Notes under the pieces: model-generated
What the model saw: the letters and a program-made list of their open reading frames with translations, nothing else
The model's database searches: none
Told to the model about the DNA's origin: nothing
Assembly (NCBI GenBank): GCA_964601355.1
Contig: CAZRNB010000001.1
Span: 825-64,824, forward strand
Reading direction: 5' to 3'
Source: an uncultured Pirellulales bacterium
GTDB taxonomy: Bacteria; Planctomycetota; Phycisphaerae; Sedimentisphaerales; Anaerobacaceae
DNA: 64,000 nucleotides
Shown: piece after piece, positions 1,167 through 52,994 of the stretch
Position numbering within the stretch: the stretch's first letter is position 1
Layout of the letters: each line of letters starts with the position of its first letter
Translations under genes and position numbers: made by a program

Positions 1167-2114
1167 TTACTCGGCAGTCGTAAGATGCTTTTTGAGATCC
1201 GGGTGAAAATGTCCCTCGAAGACTCCTTCAACCGGGCCGATCATCTGGATGCCCCAGTCGTTGTCGATTTCAACCAGCAACGTTCCGCCGGGCATTTTAA
1301 CATTTATGATTCTATCTACAAGTCCCAGCTTATAGGCCGCTGCGGCTGCTGCACATGAGCTGCTGCCGGAAGCAAGGGTATATCCTGCTCCTCTTTCCCA
1401 AATCCGTATCTCGATATTATTTCTGTCGAAGACCTTTAGAAGCTGCATGTTAATGCGATTCGGAAACACCTTGTGATTTTCAACGAAAGGCCCAATCTGT
1501 CGTGCCTTTTTCTCGCTCACCTCCGCCATCGGAATAACGCAATGGGGATTACCAATGGATAAACATGTCACTTTGTACTTATTTTTATTTATTTCAAGCT
1601 CCTCGTTGACAACCTCTCTTTTTTTGCCCGCAACCGGTATCTCGGTGCTGATGAAGGTGACTTTCCCCATACCGATTTTTATTAAGTTTGCAGTGTCATC
1701 TTTTATCTGAACTTCAACAACACCGCCTAATGTTTTGATTTTAAAATTCTTTTTATCGACGTATTTATTTTCAAATAGATATTTGGCAAATATCCGCAGG
1801 CCGTTGCCGCTTTTTTCAGCCTCGCTGCCGTCGGGATTGAAGATACGCAGCCCATATAAGTTTTGAGTTTTGAGTTCCCTCGACTCCGCTCGGGACAGGT
1901 TTGAGTTTTGAGTTTCTTTGATGGGGCCGTATAAAATTCCATCTGAGCCGATCCCATAATTTCTGTCACAAATCAGCCGAATGAACTGCGGCGTCAGCTT
2001 AATATCGTTGACGTTGGGGTCGATAACGAGGTAATCATTTCCAAGCCCGTGGTACTTTTTAAAATGTACTTCCATAGTTTTGCCCCTGATTATCTTCGCA
2101 GAAGTATCGGCCAA
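1167..2114 (-). CDS. dapF: diaminopimelate epimerase
   Basis: Motifs GLGNDYLVID, GIGSDGILYGP, IFNPDGSEAEKSGNGLRIF, SIGNPHCV and ERGAGYTLASGSSSCAAA are typical DapF. Carries an extra repeat-encoded segment (see 1860-1916). Confidence 0.9.
   Translation of the reverse strand: MADTSAKIIRGKTMEVHFKKYHGLGNDYLVIDPNVNDIKLTPQFIRLICDRNYGIGSDGILYGPIKETQNSNLSRAESRELKTQNLYGLRIFNPDGSEAEKSGNGLRIFAKYLFENKYVDKKNFKIKTLGGVVEVQIKDDTANLIKIGMGKVTFISTEIPVAGKKREVVNEELEINKNKYKVTCLSIGNPHCVIPMAEVSEKKARQIGPFVENHKVFPNRINMQLLKVFDRNNIEIRIWERGAGYTLASGSSSCAAAAAAYKLGLVDRIINVKMPGGTLLVEIDNDWGIQMIGPVEGVFEGHFHPDLKKHLTTAE
1860..1916. repeat. in-frame repeat insertion inside dapF: (GTTTTGA)n 7-mer flanks around CCCTCGACTCCGCTCGGGACAGG
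   Basis: Sequence gttttgagttttgagtt-ccctcgactccgctcgggacagg-tttgagttttgagtttc encodes TQNSNLSRAESRELKTQN between the conserved DapF blocks GILYGP and LRIFNPDGSEAE. It shares GGGACAGGTTTG with the pdxA insert. Confidence 0.75.
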
Positions 2115-12699: not shown

Positions 12700-13128
12700 C
12701 TCCGAAATCGCATTTTATGTCAAACTAATTTCATTTTTGAATCAAAATTTACAGACAAACACTATAAACATAGATTCTGCCATAATTTCTTTTGGCTTCG
12801 TACCAGGTCATCTCCTCGCCGTCAATGCGGCATGAATATGTCCGGTGGGCATGTCGCAATCATTTCGCGGGCCTCTATTGACTCATGACATAAACGCGCT
12901 TATGCCCGCCTCGACGAAACCTTTAAAATACCACGTTCCTGATAATGCTCCTTCTTCTTCAATATCCAATACGTCCCCTCCGCTCAAGACGGATGTTCTT
13001 TATTCCTTCACCCGAACTTACACACAATATATTACACTACTATACGCGTCTCCTTTCTGCGGCTTAACCGCAAATGTTTTTCTGATGCAGGGATTATATC
13101 CCAACACCAGGAGACGCGCTTTCATAAA

Positions 13129-13270
13129 ATCATTTCGAGCGAGCCGAAGGCGAGTCGAGAAATCTGCTTTAGATCCTTCGACTTCGCTCAGGACGCCTTA
13201 CGGCGGATTTCTCCGCTTCGCCCCTGTTTCTGTCTTCGACAGAAGACACGGGGGCTTCGCTCGAAATGAT
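13129..13270. mobile_element. MITE-like 142-bp element with perfect 14-bp terminal inverted repeats
   Basis: atcatttcgagcga at 13129-13142 and its exact reverse complement tcgctcgaaatgat at 13257-13270. The interior contains the CCTTCGACTTCGCTCAGGAC module and a gtctt/aagac hairpin. No coding capacity. Confidence 0.45.
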
Positions 13271-13595
13271 AGTGGGTCTTTTCTACAGAGCAATTTTGGT
13301 ATGTAATTTTTTATTTGTGCCTTTTGTAATTTAAATTTGTCTGGGCTGCCTTAAAGCCGATGATATACACTGACAAGCTGTTTCAACTGCATATATCTTT
13401 CGAACCTTTCAGATGCGCTTAAACTTACGAAACTTTCTAACGTCCTATAATTTTTATATTATCATATTTTTTATTCTCTTTCCTCATGTAATAGAATCTG
13501 CCTAAATTGCCTGTTCAATTCTATTTAGATTTTTTTAAGGGTTGATAATAAATAGCTTATCATGGCTAATATGGGAAATTTAATAATTTTTATTC

Positions 13596-13624
13596 TTGAC
13601 AACGAAAAGCTCCATAGTTAAATT
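13596..13624 (+). promoter_or_regulatory. sigma70-like promoter candidate for the response-regulator operon
   Basis: TTGACA (13596-13601), 17 nt, TAAATT (13619-13624). Followed by a small hairpin aggccg...cggcct and an RBS GGAAGGGATGGAGA before the ATG at 13690. Confidence 0.45.
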
Positions 13625-13689
13625 AGGCCGAAAAGGCAATATGGCGGCCTTTTGTCAAAAGGAATTGGCTAAAAAGGAAGGGATGGAGA

Positions 13690-14256
13690 ATGAAGGATTT
13701 GTTTACGACCGGCGAAGCCGCTGAAGTCTGCAGAGTAAGTCAACAAACAATTATCCGCTGTTTTGATTCCGGTCGCTTGGAAGGATTCCGTGTTCCAGGC
13801 TCAAAATTCCGCAGGATTCCACGTCGAAGTCTGATCAGGTTTATGAAGGAAAATAATATCCCTCTTGATCAGATCGAATCCGGTAAAAAGAAAGTACTTG
13901 TAGTTGACGATGACGCTGAAATAATAGAGTTGATAGTAGAGGTCTTGTCTCGAGACGGGAGATTCGAAGTTAAAACCGCTTCAAGCGGCTATGAAGCCGG
14001 GATATCTACTCAGCAGTTTCGACCCGATCTGATATTACTCGACTATATGCTGCCCGATGTTAATGGCAACATAGTCTGTCAGACCATAAGGAAAAACGCC
14101 GAATTCGAAGACACCAAGGTTATCATCGTAAGCGGCGTCGTCAAACAGGATGAAATCGACCAGCTGCTGAAATCCGGCGCTCAAGGTTTTTTAAAAAAAC
14201 CGTTCAACATTGATGAGCTTAACGATAAAGTCACTACCGTTCTGCAGATGAAATGA
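13690..14256 (+). CDS. response regulator with an N-terminal excisionase/MerR-type HTH and a C-terminal receiver domain
   Basis: TTGEAAEVCRVSQQTIIRCFDSGRLEGFRVPGSKFRRIPR (excisionase-family HTH), then KKVLVVDDD...DLILLDYMLPD...KPF receiver motifs. Confidence 0.85.
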   Translation: MKDLFTTGEAAEVCRVSQQTIIRCFDSGRLEGFRVPGSKFRRIPRRSLIRFMKENNIPLDQIESGKKKVLVVDDDAEIIELIVEVLSRDGRFEVKTASSGYEAGISTQQFRPDLILLDYMLPDVNGNIVCQTIRKNAEFEDTKVIIVSGVVKQDEIDQLLKSGAQGFLKKPFNIDELNDKVTTVLQMK

Positions 14257-14345
14257 AAACTGCAACCACGCAGCAGATTCCAAATCCCACGACAGCCGGC
14301 AGGGGTAATAACGGGTATTTTCTTAAAGTGGATACCTAATACGTC

Positions 14346-16673
14346 ATGCCGGTTCCAAGAGGCAAGGACGACTATATGCAGGTAAAGAACTCTGACCCAA
14401 CTATTGCACAGCAGATATATCTCGCAATAGGTCGGATTGAATCGTTTTCTACACTGCCCTGTATTGCCGTGCGATTCCTTCCCAGGCTCATGGAAGGCCA
14501 TTTCTCGCCGGCAGCCTTAGCGGATATTATAGAATCGGAGCCGGCCCTTGCCGCCAAGATTCTTTCAATCAGCGGCAGGCGAAATATAAGCCTGCCTGAT
14601 GAAAGGTTATCGCTTCGCCATATCCTTGACAGGCTCTCTGCGGATGAGGTTCGTAGCGCCCTTTTATCCATTAAAGTCCTTCCGGCTTTTGAATCAGGCC
14701 ATCCAGCGGCGCAAAGAATTCCGCTTAGAAGTGAGCTTTTACTTCACAGCCTTGCGGTGGCCTGCTGCGCAAAAGAAATTGCTGAAATAACTTTACCTCA
14801 GGCGGACCCGCACTTAGCTTACTGTGCAGGTCTGCTGCACGATATTGGAAAACTGGCTATCGAGGAGGCGATGCCGAAAAGTTTTGAACGAATTATTGAA
14901 CAGGCACGTTCGGCAAACGAATGTTCCTGCACTATTGAGCGACAGCATCTTGGCGTCGATCATACTATTCTGGGCAAGCACTTGGCTGAAAAGTGGCACC
15001 TGCCGAGTCAAATTGTCCTGGCAGCCTGGCTGCACCACAGTGACACTGCAACCATATCATGGCACGTGCCTGAGGCACGAATAGCCCAGGTCATTCAGTC
15101 AGCCGATTCCATAGCCCGGCAAGCCGGCATTGGCCAATCCGGCAGCTTCAATTCGCCCGAGCAGCCGGAAAAAACGGCATGGTCACTCGGAATAAGCCTT
15201 GCTCAACTGCAGCAAATTATTCAAAAACTGCCGGAAATAGTGACAGAAAAATCCAAAGTTCTGGGCCTGGCTTTACGAGATGCTCATGCGCGTTATTGTG
15301 ATATCCTCCACGCCGCCGCCGCACAGTTTGCACGCAAACAAATAGATTTATCCGGTGAAAATCGCCGGCTGCAAACCGCATCGAGTCACCTGGATTTTAC
15401 AACAGATTTCCTGCTCAATATCAGCTCGGCTGCAGCAGCTATTGAAATAGCAGAATACTTTGCCGCTCGCTGGCAAAGGTTCTATCAGACCGGTACAGTC
15501 TGTGTGTATTTAGCTCCTCCTGACGAGGGGCCACGTAGCCGGTTTCTCGAAGCCGTTGTTATAGAAAGCCTCGGGCAAAGCAAGACCGTTTTTCTGAATG
15601 TCCCTGAGAACGTGACACCGATACCGGAGACAATAACAAAGAGCTTTGCTATTTTAGACGCTCACAAGCACGTCGATTGGCTGTTTGAGCAATTAGACGT
15701 TGAATTCGGTCGGCAGCAAACCAGGCTGGTGCCGCTGCTTTCGGGCGGCAGAGCGGTCGGAGCGATAGTTTTTGAGCTTCACTGGCCGATAGACTCAAAT
15801 CTGATGGAGGAAAATTTTAGAATAGTGACCTCAATCGCAGGATCCGTTTTGGATTCTGCCTTCAAGCGGCAGAAACAAAAGCATCTTGCCGAATGTTTCG
15901 CCCAGCTTATTTGCAGTCCCACCCCGTCCGAGCCCTCAAAACCTGCGGCGTCAAAGGAGAAAATGACTCACGAGATTTCTTTTCCGGCTACGGCTCGGCG
16001 CTTCGCCGAGACGAGTGAGGCACTGGCTGAGATGGCGTCCGGCATAGCACATGAGCTGAATAATCCGCTCTCGGTCGTTTCCGGACGTGCGCAGTTGCTC
16101 GCAGATGCTGAGACCGACCCAAAAAAGAAACAATCGCTTAGACAAATACATGAAAAAGCATACGAGGCCTCTGCAATTATCTCAGACCTGATGGGCTTTG
16201 CTGAGCCTTCGCAGCCAAGGCCGACCCAGACGGATATGAAGCAGATGCTCATTGAAGCTATGCAATTAGCCGGCCAGAAGGCCAATGTAGAAAATATCGA
16301 CGCTCAGATTAGGGTCACTGAAGATGTCGGTAACGTCTTTGCAGACTCAGCTCAGATTGCATCAGCAATCGCAAACGTTATATGTAATTCACTCGAATCT
16401 TACGCAGACGAAATTGGGCCAATAACAATTACCGCTGACGCTGAGGGAGATACTCTGGTGAGACTGCAAATCAGTGACGAAGGTTGTGGAATGGATACGG
16501 AAACCCTGCGAAAAGCAATACAGCCGTTCTTCTCAGCAAGGCCTGCGGGCCGCAAACGAGGAATGGGTCTTGCCCACGCAGCAAGACTTATTCAATTAAA
16601 CAATGGCACATTGGATATAACAAGCCGGCCAGGCAGCGGAACTACAGTGACAATCACCCTGCCCTGTAAATAA
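14346..16673 (+). CDS. HDOD-domain sensor histidine kinase
   Basis: HDOD-like N-terminus (LLHDIGKLAIEEA, HHS), a central GAF-like region, H-box GIAHELNNPLS and an HATPase_c (DEGCGM...GMGL...GSGTTVTITLP). Confidence 0.8.
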   Translation: MPVPRGKDDYMQVKNSDPTIAQQIYLAIGRIESFSTLPCIAVRFLPRLMEGHFSPAALADIIESEPALAAKILSISGRRNISLPDERLSLRHILDRLSADEVRSALLSIKVLPAFESGHPAAQRIPLRSELLLHSLAVACCAKEIAEITLPQADPHLAYCAGLLHDIGKLAIEEAMPKSFERIIEQARSANECSCTIERQHLGVDHTILGKHLAEKWHLPSQIVLAAWLHHSDTATISWHVPEARIAQVIQSADSIARQAGIGQSGSFNSPEQPEKTAWSLGISLAQLQQIIQKLPEIVTEKSKVLGLALRDAHARYCDILHAAAAQFARKQIDLSGENRRLQTASSHLDFTTDFLLNISSAAAAIEIAEYFAARWQRFYQTGTVCVYLAPPDEGPRSRFLEAVVIESLGQSKTVFLNVPENVTPIPETITKSFAILDAHKHVDWLFEQLDVEFGRQQTRLVPLLSGGRAVGAIVFELHWPIDSNLMEENFRIVTSIAGSVLDSAFKRQKQKHLAECFAQLICSPTPSEPSKPAASKEKMTHEISFPATARRFAETSEALAEMASGIAHELNNPLSVVSGRAQLLADAETDPKKKQSLRQIHEKAYEASAIISDLMGFAEPSQPRPTQTDMKQMLIEAMQLAGQKANVENIDAQIRVTEDVGNVFADSAQIASAIANVICNSLESYADEIGPITITADAEGDTLVRLQISDEGCGMDTETLRKAIQPFFSARPAGRKRGMGLAHAARLIQLNNGTLDITSRPGSGTTVTITLPCK

Positions 16674-16960
16674 CCTTGCAGGCAATCGCAAGGCCAACCG
16701 ATTATTGGCTTAATGAGATTCAGTTAAACTATACGATATTGGCCTCTAATAACGCTGTTTTTGTCCTTGCAAATCCCCCTTATGCAGGTTAGCATCTCAT
16801 TGAAGTGCAGGAAGCTCAGAAAGATGTTGCCAAAAACATGGCTGAAACAGCTATCACCGTGACCCGCGACTTGATCGGGGCTTAAGAATAATCCCAGGAA
16901 AATGACACAGCAGGATATAGAAAGAATCTGACGTAATCTTGTGAACAACAAGTAATCCTA

Positions 16961-17905
16961 ATGGTCAAACAAAATCGCCAAGACGGCTTACGCCAGAAAT
17001 ATCGTGGTGTTGTAGTCCCTATGGTGACTCCTTTTACACCGCATGGCGATATCGATCTGGACACCACCGGGAGACTCGTTGACCACATCGTTGGTAACGG
17101 GGCTTGCATATTCGCGCTCGGCACTACAGGAGAAGCAGCCTCTATCAGGAACTCGGCTAAGGCACAATTTATTGACACGGTCGTTAAAAAAAACGCGCAT
17201 AGAGCTATGACTTATGCAGGCATATCAGATAATTGCCTGGCTATTTCCGTGGACTTGGCCAAACAGTTTTTTGATTTAGGCGTTGATGTGGTCGTGGCAC
17301 ATGTGCCGAGCTATTATCCCTTGACCGGCGATGATATACTGAGCTACTACGAAACTCTGGCTGAGCACATTGGCGGCCCTTTGATGCTATACAATATTCC
17401 GATAACAACAGGAGTGTCAATTCCCTTAGAGGTAATTGACCGGCTCAGTCATCTTCCGACGATTATAGGATTAAAAGACTCGGATAATAACATGGACCGC
17501 ATGAAACAAGCCATTGCCTTGTGGAAGGACAGGGATGACTTTTCATACCTGAGCGGCTGCACGTCTCTGAGCAAGACTGCATTAGCTATGGGTGCAGACG
17601 GAATTGTGCCGAGCGTGGGCAACATTGTACCTGATTTATTCGTCAAGCTCTATAACTCTGTGCTGAATGGCGATCCGGATGAGGCGGAGCGGTGTCAGAG
17701 ATGTGCCAACGACATCTCGGATATTATTCAGAAGAACAAAACTTTGAGCCAATCGCTGCCTGTCCTGAAGGTGATAATGCACATCCTGGGATTTTGCGAG
17801 CCGAAAGTCCTGCCGCCTCTGCGCGACTTGACCGAAGATCAGATTCAAGACGTCAGAGAAACTTTGAATGACATGGGTCTCTTACAGGAAGGCCACTCAC
17901 TATGA
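16961..17905 (+). CDS. DapA/N-acetylneuraminate-lyase-family class I aldolase
   Basis: VVPMVTPF, GTTGEAASI, YNIP, and GLKDS (Schiff-base Lys). Confidence 0.85.
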   Translation: MVKQNRQDGLRQKYRGVVVPMVTPFTPHGDIDLDTTGRLVDHIVGNGACIFALGTTGEAASIRNSAKAQFIDTVVKKNAHRAMTYAGISDNCLAISVDLAKQFFDLGVDVVVAHVPSYYPLTGDDILSYYETLAEHIGGPLMLYNIPITTGVSIPLEVIDRLSHLPTIIGLKDSDNNMDRMKQAIALWKDRDDFSYLSGCTSLSKTALAMGADGIVPSVGNIVPDLFVKLYNSVLNGDPDEAERCQRCANDISDIIQKNKTLSQSLPVLKVIMHILGFCEPKVLPPLRDLTEDQIQDVRETLNDMGLLQEGHSL

Positions 17906-18999
17906 AAGACACAAGGCCTATTCTTGGAATCACGATGGGCGATCCTCACGGCATCGGCCCGGAGGTTGCCGTCAAGGCCCTGTCAAATAAGGACGTCTAT
18001 TCGCTTTGCAGGCCCTTGCTTATCGGCGATGCCAATGTATTCAAGCAGGCTATTACTTTTACTCGTCCCGGCGTAGCGGGCCGGAGCGGGACAGGTTTGG
18101 AATTGAAAGTCCGGCCGGTGCAAAGTGAGACCGATGCTGATCCTTCGACTTTGCTCAGGACAAGTTTCGAGCCGGGCCAAATCGACGTGCTTCAGCCGCA
18201 AGGCGGCTGTGTCCAAGAACTAAAATACGGAACTATCTCGGCTCAGGCCGGTCAGGCCGCTTTTGCTGCAATTGAAAAGGCAATCGAGCTGGCTCTTGGC
18301 GGAAGGATTGATGCAGTAGTGACAGGCCCGATCAATAAAGAAGCGATACGTTCAGCGGGACATAACTTCCCCGGCCATACCGAGATATTCGCCCATTATA
18401 CGGCTACCAGCGATTACGCAATGCTTCTGATCCATGGCGACCTGAGAGTAGTTCATGTCACAACCCATATTCCTATTCAGCAAGTCAGCCAAGCGATTAA
18501 CCAAGCGCGCATCTTAAAAGTTATTAAGCTGGCGCACGACGCCTGCCAAAAGCTCGGCATAATCCATCCTCGAATCGGCGTAGCAGGATTGAATCCTCAT
18601 GCCGGTGAGGGAGGTTTGTTTGGCCAAGAGGAGCACGAGCACATCGCACCAGCCATCGAAGCGGCCAGATCTATTGGGATCAATGCCGAAGGCCCTATTC
18701 CGCCGGATACGTTATTTCCAAAGGCTATTGGCGGATGGTTCGATGTCTGCGTTGCCATGTATCACGACCAGGGACATATACCCTTAAAAGTGATGGGTTT
18801 TATCTGGGACAAGGAAAATAAGCGATTGTCTTCCGTCAACGGTGTCAATATCACACTGGGACTTCCCATTATAAGAACTTCGGTTGATCATGGCACAGCC
18901 TTCGATATTGCAGGCCGAGGCATTGCCTCGCCGGACAGTATGATAAGCGCGATTACATACGCCGTAATATTGGCGAACTCAAACAAGACACAGGAATGA
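17902..18999 (+). CDS. PdxA-family NAD-dependent phospho-hydroxyacid dehydrogenase/decarboxylase (PdxA2-like)
   Basis: LGITMGDPHGIGPE, VTGPINKEA, GHTE, NPHAGE, MYHDQGHIPLK and RTSVDHGTAFDIAG. Start overlaps the upstream stop (ATGA). Contains a repeat insertion (18064-18175). Confidence 0.9.
   Translation: MKDTRPILGITMGDPHGIGPEVAVKALSNKDVYSLCRPLLIGDANVFKQAITFTRPGVAGRSGTGLELKVRPVQSETDADPSTLLRTSFEPGQIDVLQPQGGCVQELKYGTISAQAGQAAFAAIEKAIELALGGRIDAVVTGPINKEAIRSAGHNFPGHTEIFAHYTATSDYAMLLIHGDLRVVHVTTHIPIQQVSQAINQARILKVIKLAHDACQKLGIIHPRIGVAGLNPHAGEGGLFGQEEHEHIAPAIEAARSIGINAEGPIPPDTLFPKAIGGWFDVCVAMYHDQGHIPLKVMGFIWDKENKRLSSVNGVNITLGLPIIRTSVDHGTAFDIAGRGIASPDSMISAITYAVILANSNKTQE
18064..18175. repeat. in-frame mosaic repeat insertion inside the PdxA-family gene
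   Basis: ccggcgtagcgggccggagcgggacaggtttgg...gatccttcgactttgctcaggacaagtttcgagccggg encodes RPGVAGRSGTGLELKVRPVQSETDADPSTLLRTSFEPG. It shares GGGACAGGTTTG with the dapF insert and CCTTCGACTT(T/C)GCTCAGGAC with 13185-13204. Confidence 0.65.
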
Positions 19000-43263: not shown

Positions 43264-43310
43264 CGGCCCTTCGTATTAACAATGAACAATAAACTTTTTG
43301 CGGAGCGGGA

Positions 43311-43343
43311 CGAGTATCGAGTATCCAGCATCGAGTATCGAGT
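43311..43343. repeat. tandem 7-mers (GAGTATC/CAGCATC) abutting the start codon at 43344, preceded by a core remnant GCGGAG
   Basis: gcggagcgggacgagtatcgagtatccagcatcgagtatcgagt-ATG. Confidence 0.6.
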
Positions 43344-52469: not shown

Positions 52470-52994
52470 GTGGTGAATATGGCCAACAGCAATAAACAAA
52501 ATGATGACGGCGTTCTTCGAGCAGGCGATATAATACCGCCCTACAACACTCGACCGGCTCGGGAAACCCCGGCAGAACAAACAGACACAAAACAGCAGGC
52601 AAGCGACATACCGAGATTTAACTTAGCCGAGCAGATCTTGGCAGAGCAGCGAAAAATATCCTCTACAAAAAGAAAATCTCCCGGCCCAAAAAGTATACCT
52701 CCAAGCCGACTCATCACGGCGGAGCGTGCCGGAGCGAGACAGGAAAAGAACGAGAAAAGCAGCGGAGTATTCATTCTCCGTCCCTTAGCGCCGAAAGGTG
52801 TCCTGCGGAGGACTGCGAAGGATGAAAGCCCCACTCAATTCTATTCGGCTGTTACACAGCCGGCAATACTGCTGTTAAACCAGCAGCAAATCATAGCAGA
52901 GATTGTAGCGAAGGATATAGCAAAGCTGTCCGGAGACTTGGCTGGTGGCCATCAAAAGCAAACATCCAGTGCATCAACCCCGTTAGAGAATTAA
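52470..52994 (+). CDS. hypothetical low-complexity protein
   Basis: 174-aa ORF immediately after the M16 pair, GTG start. Conserved-looking IPRFNLAEQILAEQRK and QQQIIAEIVAKDIAKL segments. The middle contains a core repeat. Confidence 0.5.
   Translation: MVNMANSNKQNDDGVLRAGDIIPPYNTRPARETPAEQTDTKQQASDIPRFNLAEQILAEQRKISSTKRKSPGPKSIPPSRLITAERAGARQEKNEKSSGVFILRPLAPKGVLRRTAKDESPTQFYSAVTQPAILLLNQQQIIAEIVAKDIAKLSGDLAGGHQKQTSSASTPLEN
52767..52830. repeat. 22-nt core (reverse orientation, 52789-52810) with imperfect inverted flanks, in-frame in the 174-aa ORF
   Basis: gtattcattctccgtccc-ttag-CGCCGAAAGGTGTCCTGCGGAG-gactgcgaaggatgaaagcc encodes GVFILRPLAPKGVLRRTAKDES. Confidence 0.7.

Follow-up and report, generated by a model that had tools for sequence, protein, structure and literature searches.

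Two In-Frame Insertions in a PdxA-Family Gene

We analysed a 64,000-nucleotide (nt) stretch of DNA from an uncultured Pirellulales bacterium (GCA_964601355.1), hereafter the window, which corresponds to C1:825-64824 (contig CAZRNB010000001.1) of an assembly, labelled G000, of 3.15 Mb in 229 contigs with 45.7% G+C. The window carries a gene for a PdxA-family NAD-dependent dehydrogenase, joined by 4-nt ATGA overlaps to both of its neighbours, an upstream dihydrodipicolinate synthase (DHDPS)-family aldolase gene and a downstream kinase gene. Two short in-frame segments of this dehydrogenase gene, here called ins1 and ins2, correspond to units of two different dispersed repeat families, fam1 (30 nt) and fam2 (24 nt), respectively (Table 1). 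An earlier note on this DNA had proposed that a metabolic gene in a translationally coupled operon hosts a repeat system, and this was borne out, with the overlaps on both sides and the repeat units inside the gene.

The deduced protein was compared with its 22 closest homologues (69–84% identity) and then with the best 120 (55–84% identity), and the DNA of six orthologues was threaded onto the protein alignment for a codon-level comparison of the junctions. Ins1 and ins2 were each absent from all of the best 120 homologues, so that the refuting condition set in the note, an equivalent insertion in orthologues outside this lineage, did not arise among them. In the DNA of all six orthologues the empty sites were exact, reading ACT TTT / ACA GGC for ins1 and GAT / TTC GAG for ins2 (the slash marks the site), and the boundaries left an ambiguity of 2 nt (AC) in the former and of 1 nt (T) in the latter. 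A target duplication was looked for at the two sites, and at a further insert found in cysS, and none was observed, the ambiguity of 1–2 nt being all that the junctions displayed. The native spacer between the two insertions was kept at both the protein and the DNA level in all the close orthologues, and aligned with GGEMKIRRIEDASEA of the solved structure 4jqp. When the region 18040-18200 was searched by BLAST against the whole genome, about 50 matches fell on 18139-18165 and a few on 18061-18093. Taken on the aligned sequences, ins1 and ins2 would be two separate insertion events, each of which introduced a full-length unit from its own dispersed family, with the ends that the family logos define.

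The earlier note had described, instead, one insertion of about 110 nt, that is, a mosaic mobile element inserted once and composed of modules shared with a dapF insert and with an intergenic element resembling a miniature inverted-repeat transposable element (MITE). The peptide RPGVAGRSGTGLELKVRPVQSETDADPSTLLRTSFEPG and both of the DNA strings quoted for it were found where they had been placed in the open reading frame (ORF) of the dehydrogenase; moreover, repeat-derived sequence is present at either end of the 110 nt, and composites of fam1-like and fam2-like units do exist elsewhere in the genome, for instance on contigs C25, C69 and C28. However, the alignments with 22 and 120 homologues and with the six orthologue DNAs resolved the stretch into 30 and 24 inserted nt separated by 51 native ones. 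This middle part (TGLELKVRPVQSETDAD) is conserved codon for codon in the orthologues free of inserts and aligns with solved PdxA2 structures, and the 110 nt as a whole have no second copy in the genome, which makes a single mosaic insertion very improbable.

With up to 3 mismatches allowed, the window held no second copy of either module string as quoted, and the families emerged after the units had been re-delimited by genome-wide BLAST and sequence logos. The second module (GATCCTTCGACTTTGCTCAGGACAAG) turned out to belong, as claimed, to a dispersed family, with about 74–100 copies in the genome depending on the stringency, including the intergenic unit of Table 1 and the dapF insert. The first (GGAGCGGGACAGGTTTGG), with no second copy as it had been cut, was displaced: its 3′ part, ACAGGTTTG, belongs to the native coding sequence, and the true unit lies further 5′, at 18061-18090, and has 31 copies in the genome. 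As for the relatives assigned to this first module, the site at 43301 is in fact a partial fam1 3′ end, whereas the dapF copy belongs to fam2.

A fragmented metagenome-assembled genome, in 229 contigs and rich in short repeats, could in principle contain chimeras produced during assembly or binning from repeat-containing reads. Yet the identical 1098-nt gene, with both inserts, was present on three contigs independently assembled from three sequencing runs, which rules out a one-off assembly error; in addition, the inserts are shorter than the reads, are flanked by unique sequence and keep the frame exactly, and equivalent inserts were found in hemC and cysS, as described below. Of all the explanations considered, an artefact is the one that we regard as the least probable.

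Table 1. Positions in the window of the dehydrogenase gene, of its two inserts and of the other fam1 and fam2 units discussed in the text.
Feature	Positions	Strand	Description
PdxA-family NAD-dependent dehydrogenase gene	17902-18999	+	365 aa, 1098 nt
ins1	18061-18090	+	30 nt in frame, ACTCGTCCCGGCGTAGCGGGCCGGAGCGGG; residues 54-63, TRPGVAGRSG; one full fam1 unit
Native coding spacer	18091-18141	+	51 nt, T64-D80, TGLELKVRPVQSETDAD; outside both insertions
ins2	18142-18165	+	24 nt in frame, CCTTCGACTTTGCTCAGGACAAGT; residues 81-88, PSTLLRTS; one full fam2 unit
Intergenic fam2 unit	13174-13197	+	Central loop of ~140-nt MITE-like composite; 22/24 bases match the second module (GATCCTTCGACTTTGCTCAGGACAAG)
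fam2 unit inside minus-strand dapF	1877-1900	+	CCCTCGACTCCGCTCGGGACAGGT, nested in GTTTTGA heptamer repeats
Second fam1 unit of the window	52709-52738	+	ACTCATCACGGCGGAGCGTGCCGGAGCGAG, then ACAGG
Partial fam1 3′ end	43301-43315	+	GGAGCGGGACGAG, abuts GAGTATC heptamer repeats; compare full copies, e.g. ...GCCGGAGCAGGACgagtatcgag

The Two Repeat Families

The consensus of fam1, ACTCGTC-xy-GGCGGAGC-y'x'-GCCG-KAGC-NGG, is 30 nt long and was matched by the 31 genomic copies, against 0 for a reversed-pattern control. Of the 31 copies, 27 have reverse-complementary dinucleotides at xy and y'x', with five pair types represented (AC/GT, AG/CT, TG/CA, CC/GG and TC/GA), which amounts to clear compensatory variation for a short stem; those of ins1 are compensated as CC/GG. 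The covariation backs only the pairing CxyG/Cy'x'G, namely a stem of 4 bp around a loop of 6 nt, and the unit has GCCGKAGCNGGA as its 3′ part. The native ACAGG that follows ins1 resembles the consensus of the fam1 3′ flank. Outside this genome, fam1 exceeded the reversed control only in a few sister genera, where it has 1–10 copies; since this GC-rich pattern was elsewhere in the phylum no commoner than its control, the family appears to be confined, within the genomes searched, to this narrow group.

The fam2 unit can be written as CCTTCGAC-N3-GCTCAGGACARGT, and its logo in this genome as (A)TCCTTCGAC-N3-GCTCAGGACAGG(T). A strict form of the pattern gave 45 copies in the genome and 0 for the reversed-pattern control. 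In the variants, changes of T to C occur jointly with changes of A to G, as in the dapF copy (CCCTCGAC...GCTCGGGAC), and these joint changes fit an imperfect hairpin. Direct reading of the dapF sequence revealed that removal of the 24 nt at 1877-1900 restores the register of the GTTTTGA heptamers in which they are nested.

Both families were also found within genes. In both orientations, 14 of the 31 copies of fam1 and 30 of 91 copies of fam2 lie well inside ORFs of at least 200 aa; given that such ORFs cover 75% of the genome, the genic copies are about two-fold depleted, yet numerous. The intergenic copies of the two families are mostly located in the loops of larger, lineage-specific hairpins or between runs of 7-nt repeats. 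In the window, the region 13100-13290 contains a MITE-like composite of ~140 nt with long terminal inverted repeats (TCATTTCGAGCGAGCCGAAGG...), similar copies of which are present on about 15 contigs; in the loop of its central hairpin, the fam2 unit is directly followed by the hairpin GCCTTACGGC of a 21-nt family, and this arrangement suggests that the units nest in each other. In three other composites (C25:24337-24390, C69:15652-15703 and C28:19150-19210) a reverse fam1-like unit lies ~12 nt upstream of the fam2 variant GGCCCTTCGACTTCGCTCAGGGC; the recurrence of such composites indicates that the two families are sometimes physically linked outside genes.

The distribution of fam2 is wider than that of fam1. 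Of 24 genomes belonging to the same family, 19 contain it, with a maximum of 106 copies; it was rare or absent in most of the other families of the order, while among the sampled genomes of the phylum it was present in 17 of 151. A scan with TCCTTCGACNNNGCTCAGGACA, using one genome per species, retrieved at least 120 exact loci in well over a dozen phyla; about 4 loci would be expected by chance, according to our own estimate based on 19 fixed bases and 1.2e12 positions. The loci listed came from Proteobacteria, Bacteroidota isolates, Acidobacteriota, Chloroflexota, Verrucomicrobiota, Nitrospirota, Cyanobacteria, Patescibacteria and others. Among the 120 loci listed, conservation extends three bases past the fixed pattern (R, G, Y), the N3 prefers TTC, and conservation then falls abruptly to background at both ends; many of these cross-phylum copies lie inside inverted repeats specific to their hosts. 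Across phyla, fam2 would therefore seem, from its sequence, to behave as a discrete unit. A full-text search of the literature for the fam2 motif and for its peptide strings returned no paper, and a search of 12900-18400 against Rfam gave no family match.

Inserts in Other Genes and in Orthologous Loops

The same two families were recognised in two essential genes unrelated to pdxA. In hemC (G000:C44:8216-9193), a 24-nt fam2 unit encodes GSFDPAQD, corresponding to an exact 8-residue gap in the comparison with the porphobilinogen deaminase 5h6o and adjoining the conserved EG-FDAIILA motif. In cysS (G000:C69:989-2497), a fam1 unit in reverse orientation, of exactly 30 nt, encodes PATARFAETS shortly after the KMSKS loop; this insert is missing from 12 of 13 relatives and, if read in the orientation of the unit, it is followed by a native AC, as in pdxA. 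In independent genes, fam2 thus adds a constant 24 nt and fam1 a constant 30 nt, and the units occur in several frames and in both orientations.

Other small families have reached the same loops in the orthologues of the dehydrogenase. In the orthologue P0002, 21 nt (TCCACAGGATGCCTTACGGCA) are located one codon from the ins2 site, and P0021 has a similar peptide at that P0002 site; the 21-mer belongs to a third family, TCCRCAGGACRCCTTYCGGCG, with 110 matches in our genome against 2–22 for shuffled controls. In the following loop, another stretch of 21 nt, CGTCTTCTTGTCGAAGACAAG, is common to P0006 and P0007, and an identical 21-mer is present in a hairpin loop of the genome analysed here; P0007 has also, at the ins2 site, ~40 nt consisting of two further hairpin units. 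That different families with unrelated peptides are found in the same loops points to the tolerance of these loops and not to a shared function. Accordingly, the close spacing of ins1 and ins2, together with the hits of other families in the same orthologue loops, is most simply explained by tolerant loops, a target preference being less likely. As a side observation, the orthologue loci with short in-frame inserts in these or adjacent loops are L022:973-2037, L023:1160-2263, L025:1955-3019 and L026:3001-4098, and the inserts seen there are STGCLTA (of the 21-nt TCCRCAGGACRCCTTYCGGCG family), RLLVEDK (CGTCTTCTTGTCGAAGACAAG), the ~40-nt double hairpin, DSRFAGAS and GILPARVEGVSPSHLA.

Tolerance of the Inserts by the Protein

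A monomer structure model built from 85 homologues reached a mean pLDDT (predicted local distance difference test) of 89 and a predicted TM score (pTM) of 0.90, while an earlier model from 23 close homologues had a pLDDT of 45. The pLDDT fell below 50 only at residues 57-64, at ins1, and confidence was low at residues 81-90, around ins2. In the model, ins1 is placed between helix 44-53 and strand 69-73, and ins2 between strands 69-73 and 93-97, so that the 10 and 8 added residues are predicted to form flexible loops between elements of secondary structure. The target-normalised TM scores against 4jqp, 6e85, 2hi1, 1ps6 and 6xmy were 0.80–0.92, the first three being the closest solved structures. 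Several PdxA structures align only from about residue 100 onward, which means that the inserts sit in the N-terminal part, where PdxA proteins vary most. The residues H159, H189, H233, H288, D289 and H292, which we take to be the Zn/substrate site from what is known of E. coli PdxA, are invariant in the 85 homologues and all kept here; the residues retained include the His and Asp of GHTE, TTHIP, NPHAG and YHDQGH. On the model and the alignments, the dehydrogenase looks functional, with its catalytic residues intact. As a side observation, residues 300-310 (IWDKENKRLSS, 18799-18831) form an 11-residue segment that is missing from all the solved PdxA structures, is kept by every member of the clade formed by the close homologues and adopts a small beta-hairpin in the model; it has the look of an older insertion that became fixed in this lineage, and no link to a repeat family was made for it.

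The survival of the gene can be explained by the features of the units themselves. As their lengths are divisible by three, they contain no in-frame stop and they landed in loops, the ORF stayed open and the protein gained 10 + 8 residues. We read ins1 and ins2 as passengers without a function of their own. It might be argued that the loops are adaptive, either by giving the PdxA2 enzyme a new property, such as a contact with a partner or a changed regulation, or by forming mRNA hairpins that tune translation in the coupled operon: ins1 and ins2 differ little from the consensus of their families, the stem of ins1 is compensated, and several sister lineages have inserts in the same loops. These latter inserts, however, are of other families with unrelated peptides, as expected from tolerance; the same units are found in unrelated genes, in all frames and in both orientations; both families are about two-fold depleted in the long ORFs that make up 75% of the genome; and the predicted fold of the 161-nt region does not surpass that of shuffled sequence (z = 0.35), on which ground a selected mRNA structure was dropped. 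Adaptive loops are, therefore, an improbable explanation.

Altogether, we favour, with a probability of roughly 0.8, that ins1 and ins2 are tolerated passenger insertions of very small hairpin elements in a functional PdxA2-type gene. For annotation, this means that the gene should be described as encoding an intact PdxA2-type dehydrogenase that carries two passenger loops, neither as a diverged subfamily nor as a pseudogene.

How the Units May Have Been Inserted

If ins1 and ins2 are passengers of this kind, their units may have been copied as discrete entities, in the form of single-strand hairpins, and recognised through the hairpin and the conserved ends. The likeliest agent of the copying would be a trans-acting enzyme working on single-stranded DNA, of the HUH/Y1 type and similar to the transposases associated with repetitive extragenic palindromic sequences (REPs), known as RAYTs, which would insert the units without a target duplication. 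The absence of such a duplication fits an enzyme of this type, which we propose only tentatively and with slightly less than even confidence. Five Y1_Tnp-like ORFs were identified in the genome. One of them (C170:1372-1947, locus L031) is Y1/RAYT-like, with HxH and Y motifs, and has inverted GTAGG-tagged hairpins on both sides (GGTGTGCAWTGCACAMC), in a REPtron-like arrangement; the four others, on C40, C72, C126 and C160, are weak matches and adjoin GCTAAAC-tagged hairpins.

Several observations weigh against mobile hairpin elements moved in this way. The flanks of all the five Y1-like ORFs are devoid of fam1 and fam2 units, so that none of them forms a REPtron with either family. The genes bracketed by pairs of units are ordinary ones (alkaline phosphatase, dihydroorotase, recJ and neighbours of dnaB), and no parent element was found among them. 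Furthermore, fam2 is present in relatives in which no Y1_Tnp is detectable (G016 and G023), and many Y1-rich relatives are without fam2; over 41 relatives, the counts of Y1 and of fam2 agreed only loosely among members of the family and showed no agreement beyond it, a comparison that is no test, the genomes being related. Compared with the known RAYT substrates, the stems, at 4–5 bp, are short, and the GTAG tag is missing from the units. Finally, the junction overlaps of 1–2 nt and the native ACAGG after ins1 fit template switching as well.

Template switching during replication or repair, by copy-choice or gene conversion from an ectopic hairpin copy to a stalled strand and guided by 1–6 nt of microhomology, is indeed a serious rival. 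It too would leave no target duplication, and it would account for the ambiguity of 1–2 nt at every junction examined and for the similarity of the ACAGG to the 3′ flank consensus of fam1; in addition, the intergenic copies favour other hairpins' loops, where stalling is likely, units exist in genomes without a detectable Y1 transposase, and a universal host process would ease a spread over many phyla. It explains the invariant ends poorly, however, because template switching should leave ragged ends, whereas independent genes have gained exactly 24 or 30 nt and the sharp ends of fam2 fall at the same bases in the 120 loci listed from many phyla; moreover, it leaves the horizontal spread of a 24-mer across phyla unexplained. 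We regard it as somewhat less likely than an HUH/Y1-type enzyme, and what remains of our confidence goes to an agent that is neither an HUH/Y1-type enzyme nor template switching.

Comparison with Known Systems

In size and behaviour, the nearest known system would be, by description, that of the SDR4/5/6 repeats of Nostoc and relatives (reportedly Elhai et al. 2008, Genome Res 18:1484), which are said to be 21–27 nt long, dispersed, with filled and empty sites, and nested in other repeats and in hairpin loops, to have been described only in filamentous cyanobacteria and to lack an associated transposase. The 24-nt fam2 agrees with this description in its length, its unrelated contexts, its empty sites and its nesting in hairpin loops and heptamer runs, whereas the 30 nt of fam1 fall just outside the 21–27 nt range. 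MITEs are usually longer than 50–100 bp, with terminal inverted repeats derived from a parent insertion sequence (IS) and with target-site duplications. They share with our units the character of non-autonomous, dispersed, structured repeats able to make in-frame fusions, but fam1 and fam2 showed no target-site duplication at four filled/empty junction pairs, and no parent IS was found for them.

The REPs of the GTAG- and CGTC-tagged super-families are dispersed stem-loops of 20–40 bp, mostly intergenic, a minority of which is translated inside genes; they occur in Planctomycetes and relatives, and the intragenic cases include two in one ORF (Di Nocera et al. 2013, PMC3733652). Those of the CGTC type have stems of 8–9 bp, an A/T start (first two positions), loops of 4–5 nt, a CCA tail and no known transposase (PMC3733652). 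Fam1 resembles them in its unpaired tag, starting with ACT-CGTC at highly conserved positions, but its covarying stem of 4–5 bp, its 6-nt loop and the lack of a CCA tail place it outside their definition. Fam2 has neither tag and is preserved nearly base for base over well over a dozen phyla, while most REP families are restricted to one species or genus. The Rickettsia palindromic elements (RPEs; Ogata et al. 2000, 2002), as far as the account in PMC10969869 extends, are palindromes of ~100–150 bp with a conserved peptide of 30–50 aa, known from Rickettsia only. In that account, they are likewise selfish palindromes inserted in frame in unrelated metabolic and housekeeping genes, whose fold and function are presumed to be kept (PMC10969869). 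The units described here are inserted in frame too, but at 24 and 30 nt (8 and 10 aa) they are smaller than RPEs, which on the same account are about five times larger; they do not encode a single conserved peptide, they are found in several frames and both orientations, and fam2 is cosmopolitan.

The pdxA2 locus is thus a further clear example of a habit known from Rickettsia, cyanobacteria and REP-rich bacteria. It offers clean filled/empty pairs for two tiny repeat families, with exact lengths, no duplication and compensated stems, in loops that other mini-families have independently colonised in sister lineages. The class of element, above all the cosmopolitan 24-mer, appears not to have been described before. 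It is conceivable, even if we hold it to be somewhat doubtful, that fam2 and its 21- and 30-nt companions represent a cosmopolitan class of codon-multiple mini-hairpins, copied as exact units, by a mechanism that might be universal, into hairpin loops and protein loops in well over a dozen phyla. Were this true, such mini-hairpins would be a general source of variation in the length of protein loops, and their copying would be naturally recorded in the pdxA2 loop, which at least 4 different families have entered in sister lineages. If the fam2 24-mer is truly mobile, its mechanism becomes a question that could be addressed with a collection of loci of this kind, through target-site logos, rates of gain and loss, and candidate enzymes.

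Gene and Operon Setting

The assignment of the dehydrogenase was based on family models and on gene context. The protein scored 358.3 bits with TIGR00557 over residues 8-357, above the cut-off of 290.35, and a precomputed match to PF04166 also places it in the PdxA family. With the equivalog NF002891 (D-threonate 4-phosphate dehydrogenase) it scored 323.6 bits, under the cut-off of 583. The overlapping gene downstream encodes an acid-sugar kinase of the DUF1537 type, with SBD_N/NBD_C domains in the kinase gene at the orthologous loci, which matches the D-threonate kinase and 3-oxo-tetronate kinase models, in both cases below the cut-off; it is followed by a sodium/solute symporter (SSS transporter). 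The adjacent DUF1537 four-carbon acid-sugar kinase that is expected next to a PdxA2 is therefore present, and the order of the four genes, aldolase, dehydrogenase, kinase and transporter, is repeated at the orthologous loci. From its sequence and neighbours, the gene probably encodes an accessory PdxA2-type 4-phospho-D-threonate/erythronate dehydrogenase of a four-carbon acid-sugar pathway. This substrate assignment derives from the gene context and from established knowledge of DUF1537 and PdxA2, and in view of the score with NF002891 the exact substrate is left unassigned.

A second pdxA paralogue is located at G000:C4:16941-17930 and shares 46% identity with the gene studied here over the C-terminal 250 residues. 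It was found in nearly all the relatives, and orthologues of the gene in the window in 3 of 40; the paralogue is presumably the housekeeping vitamin B6 gene.

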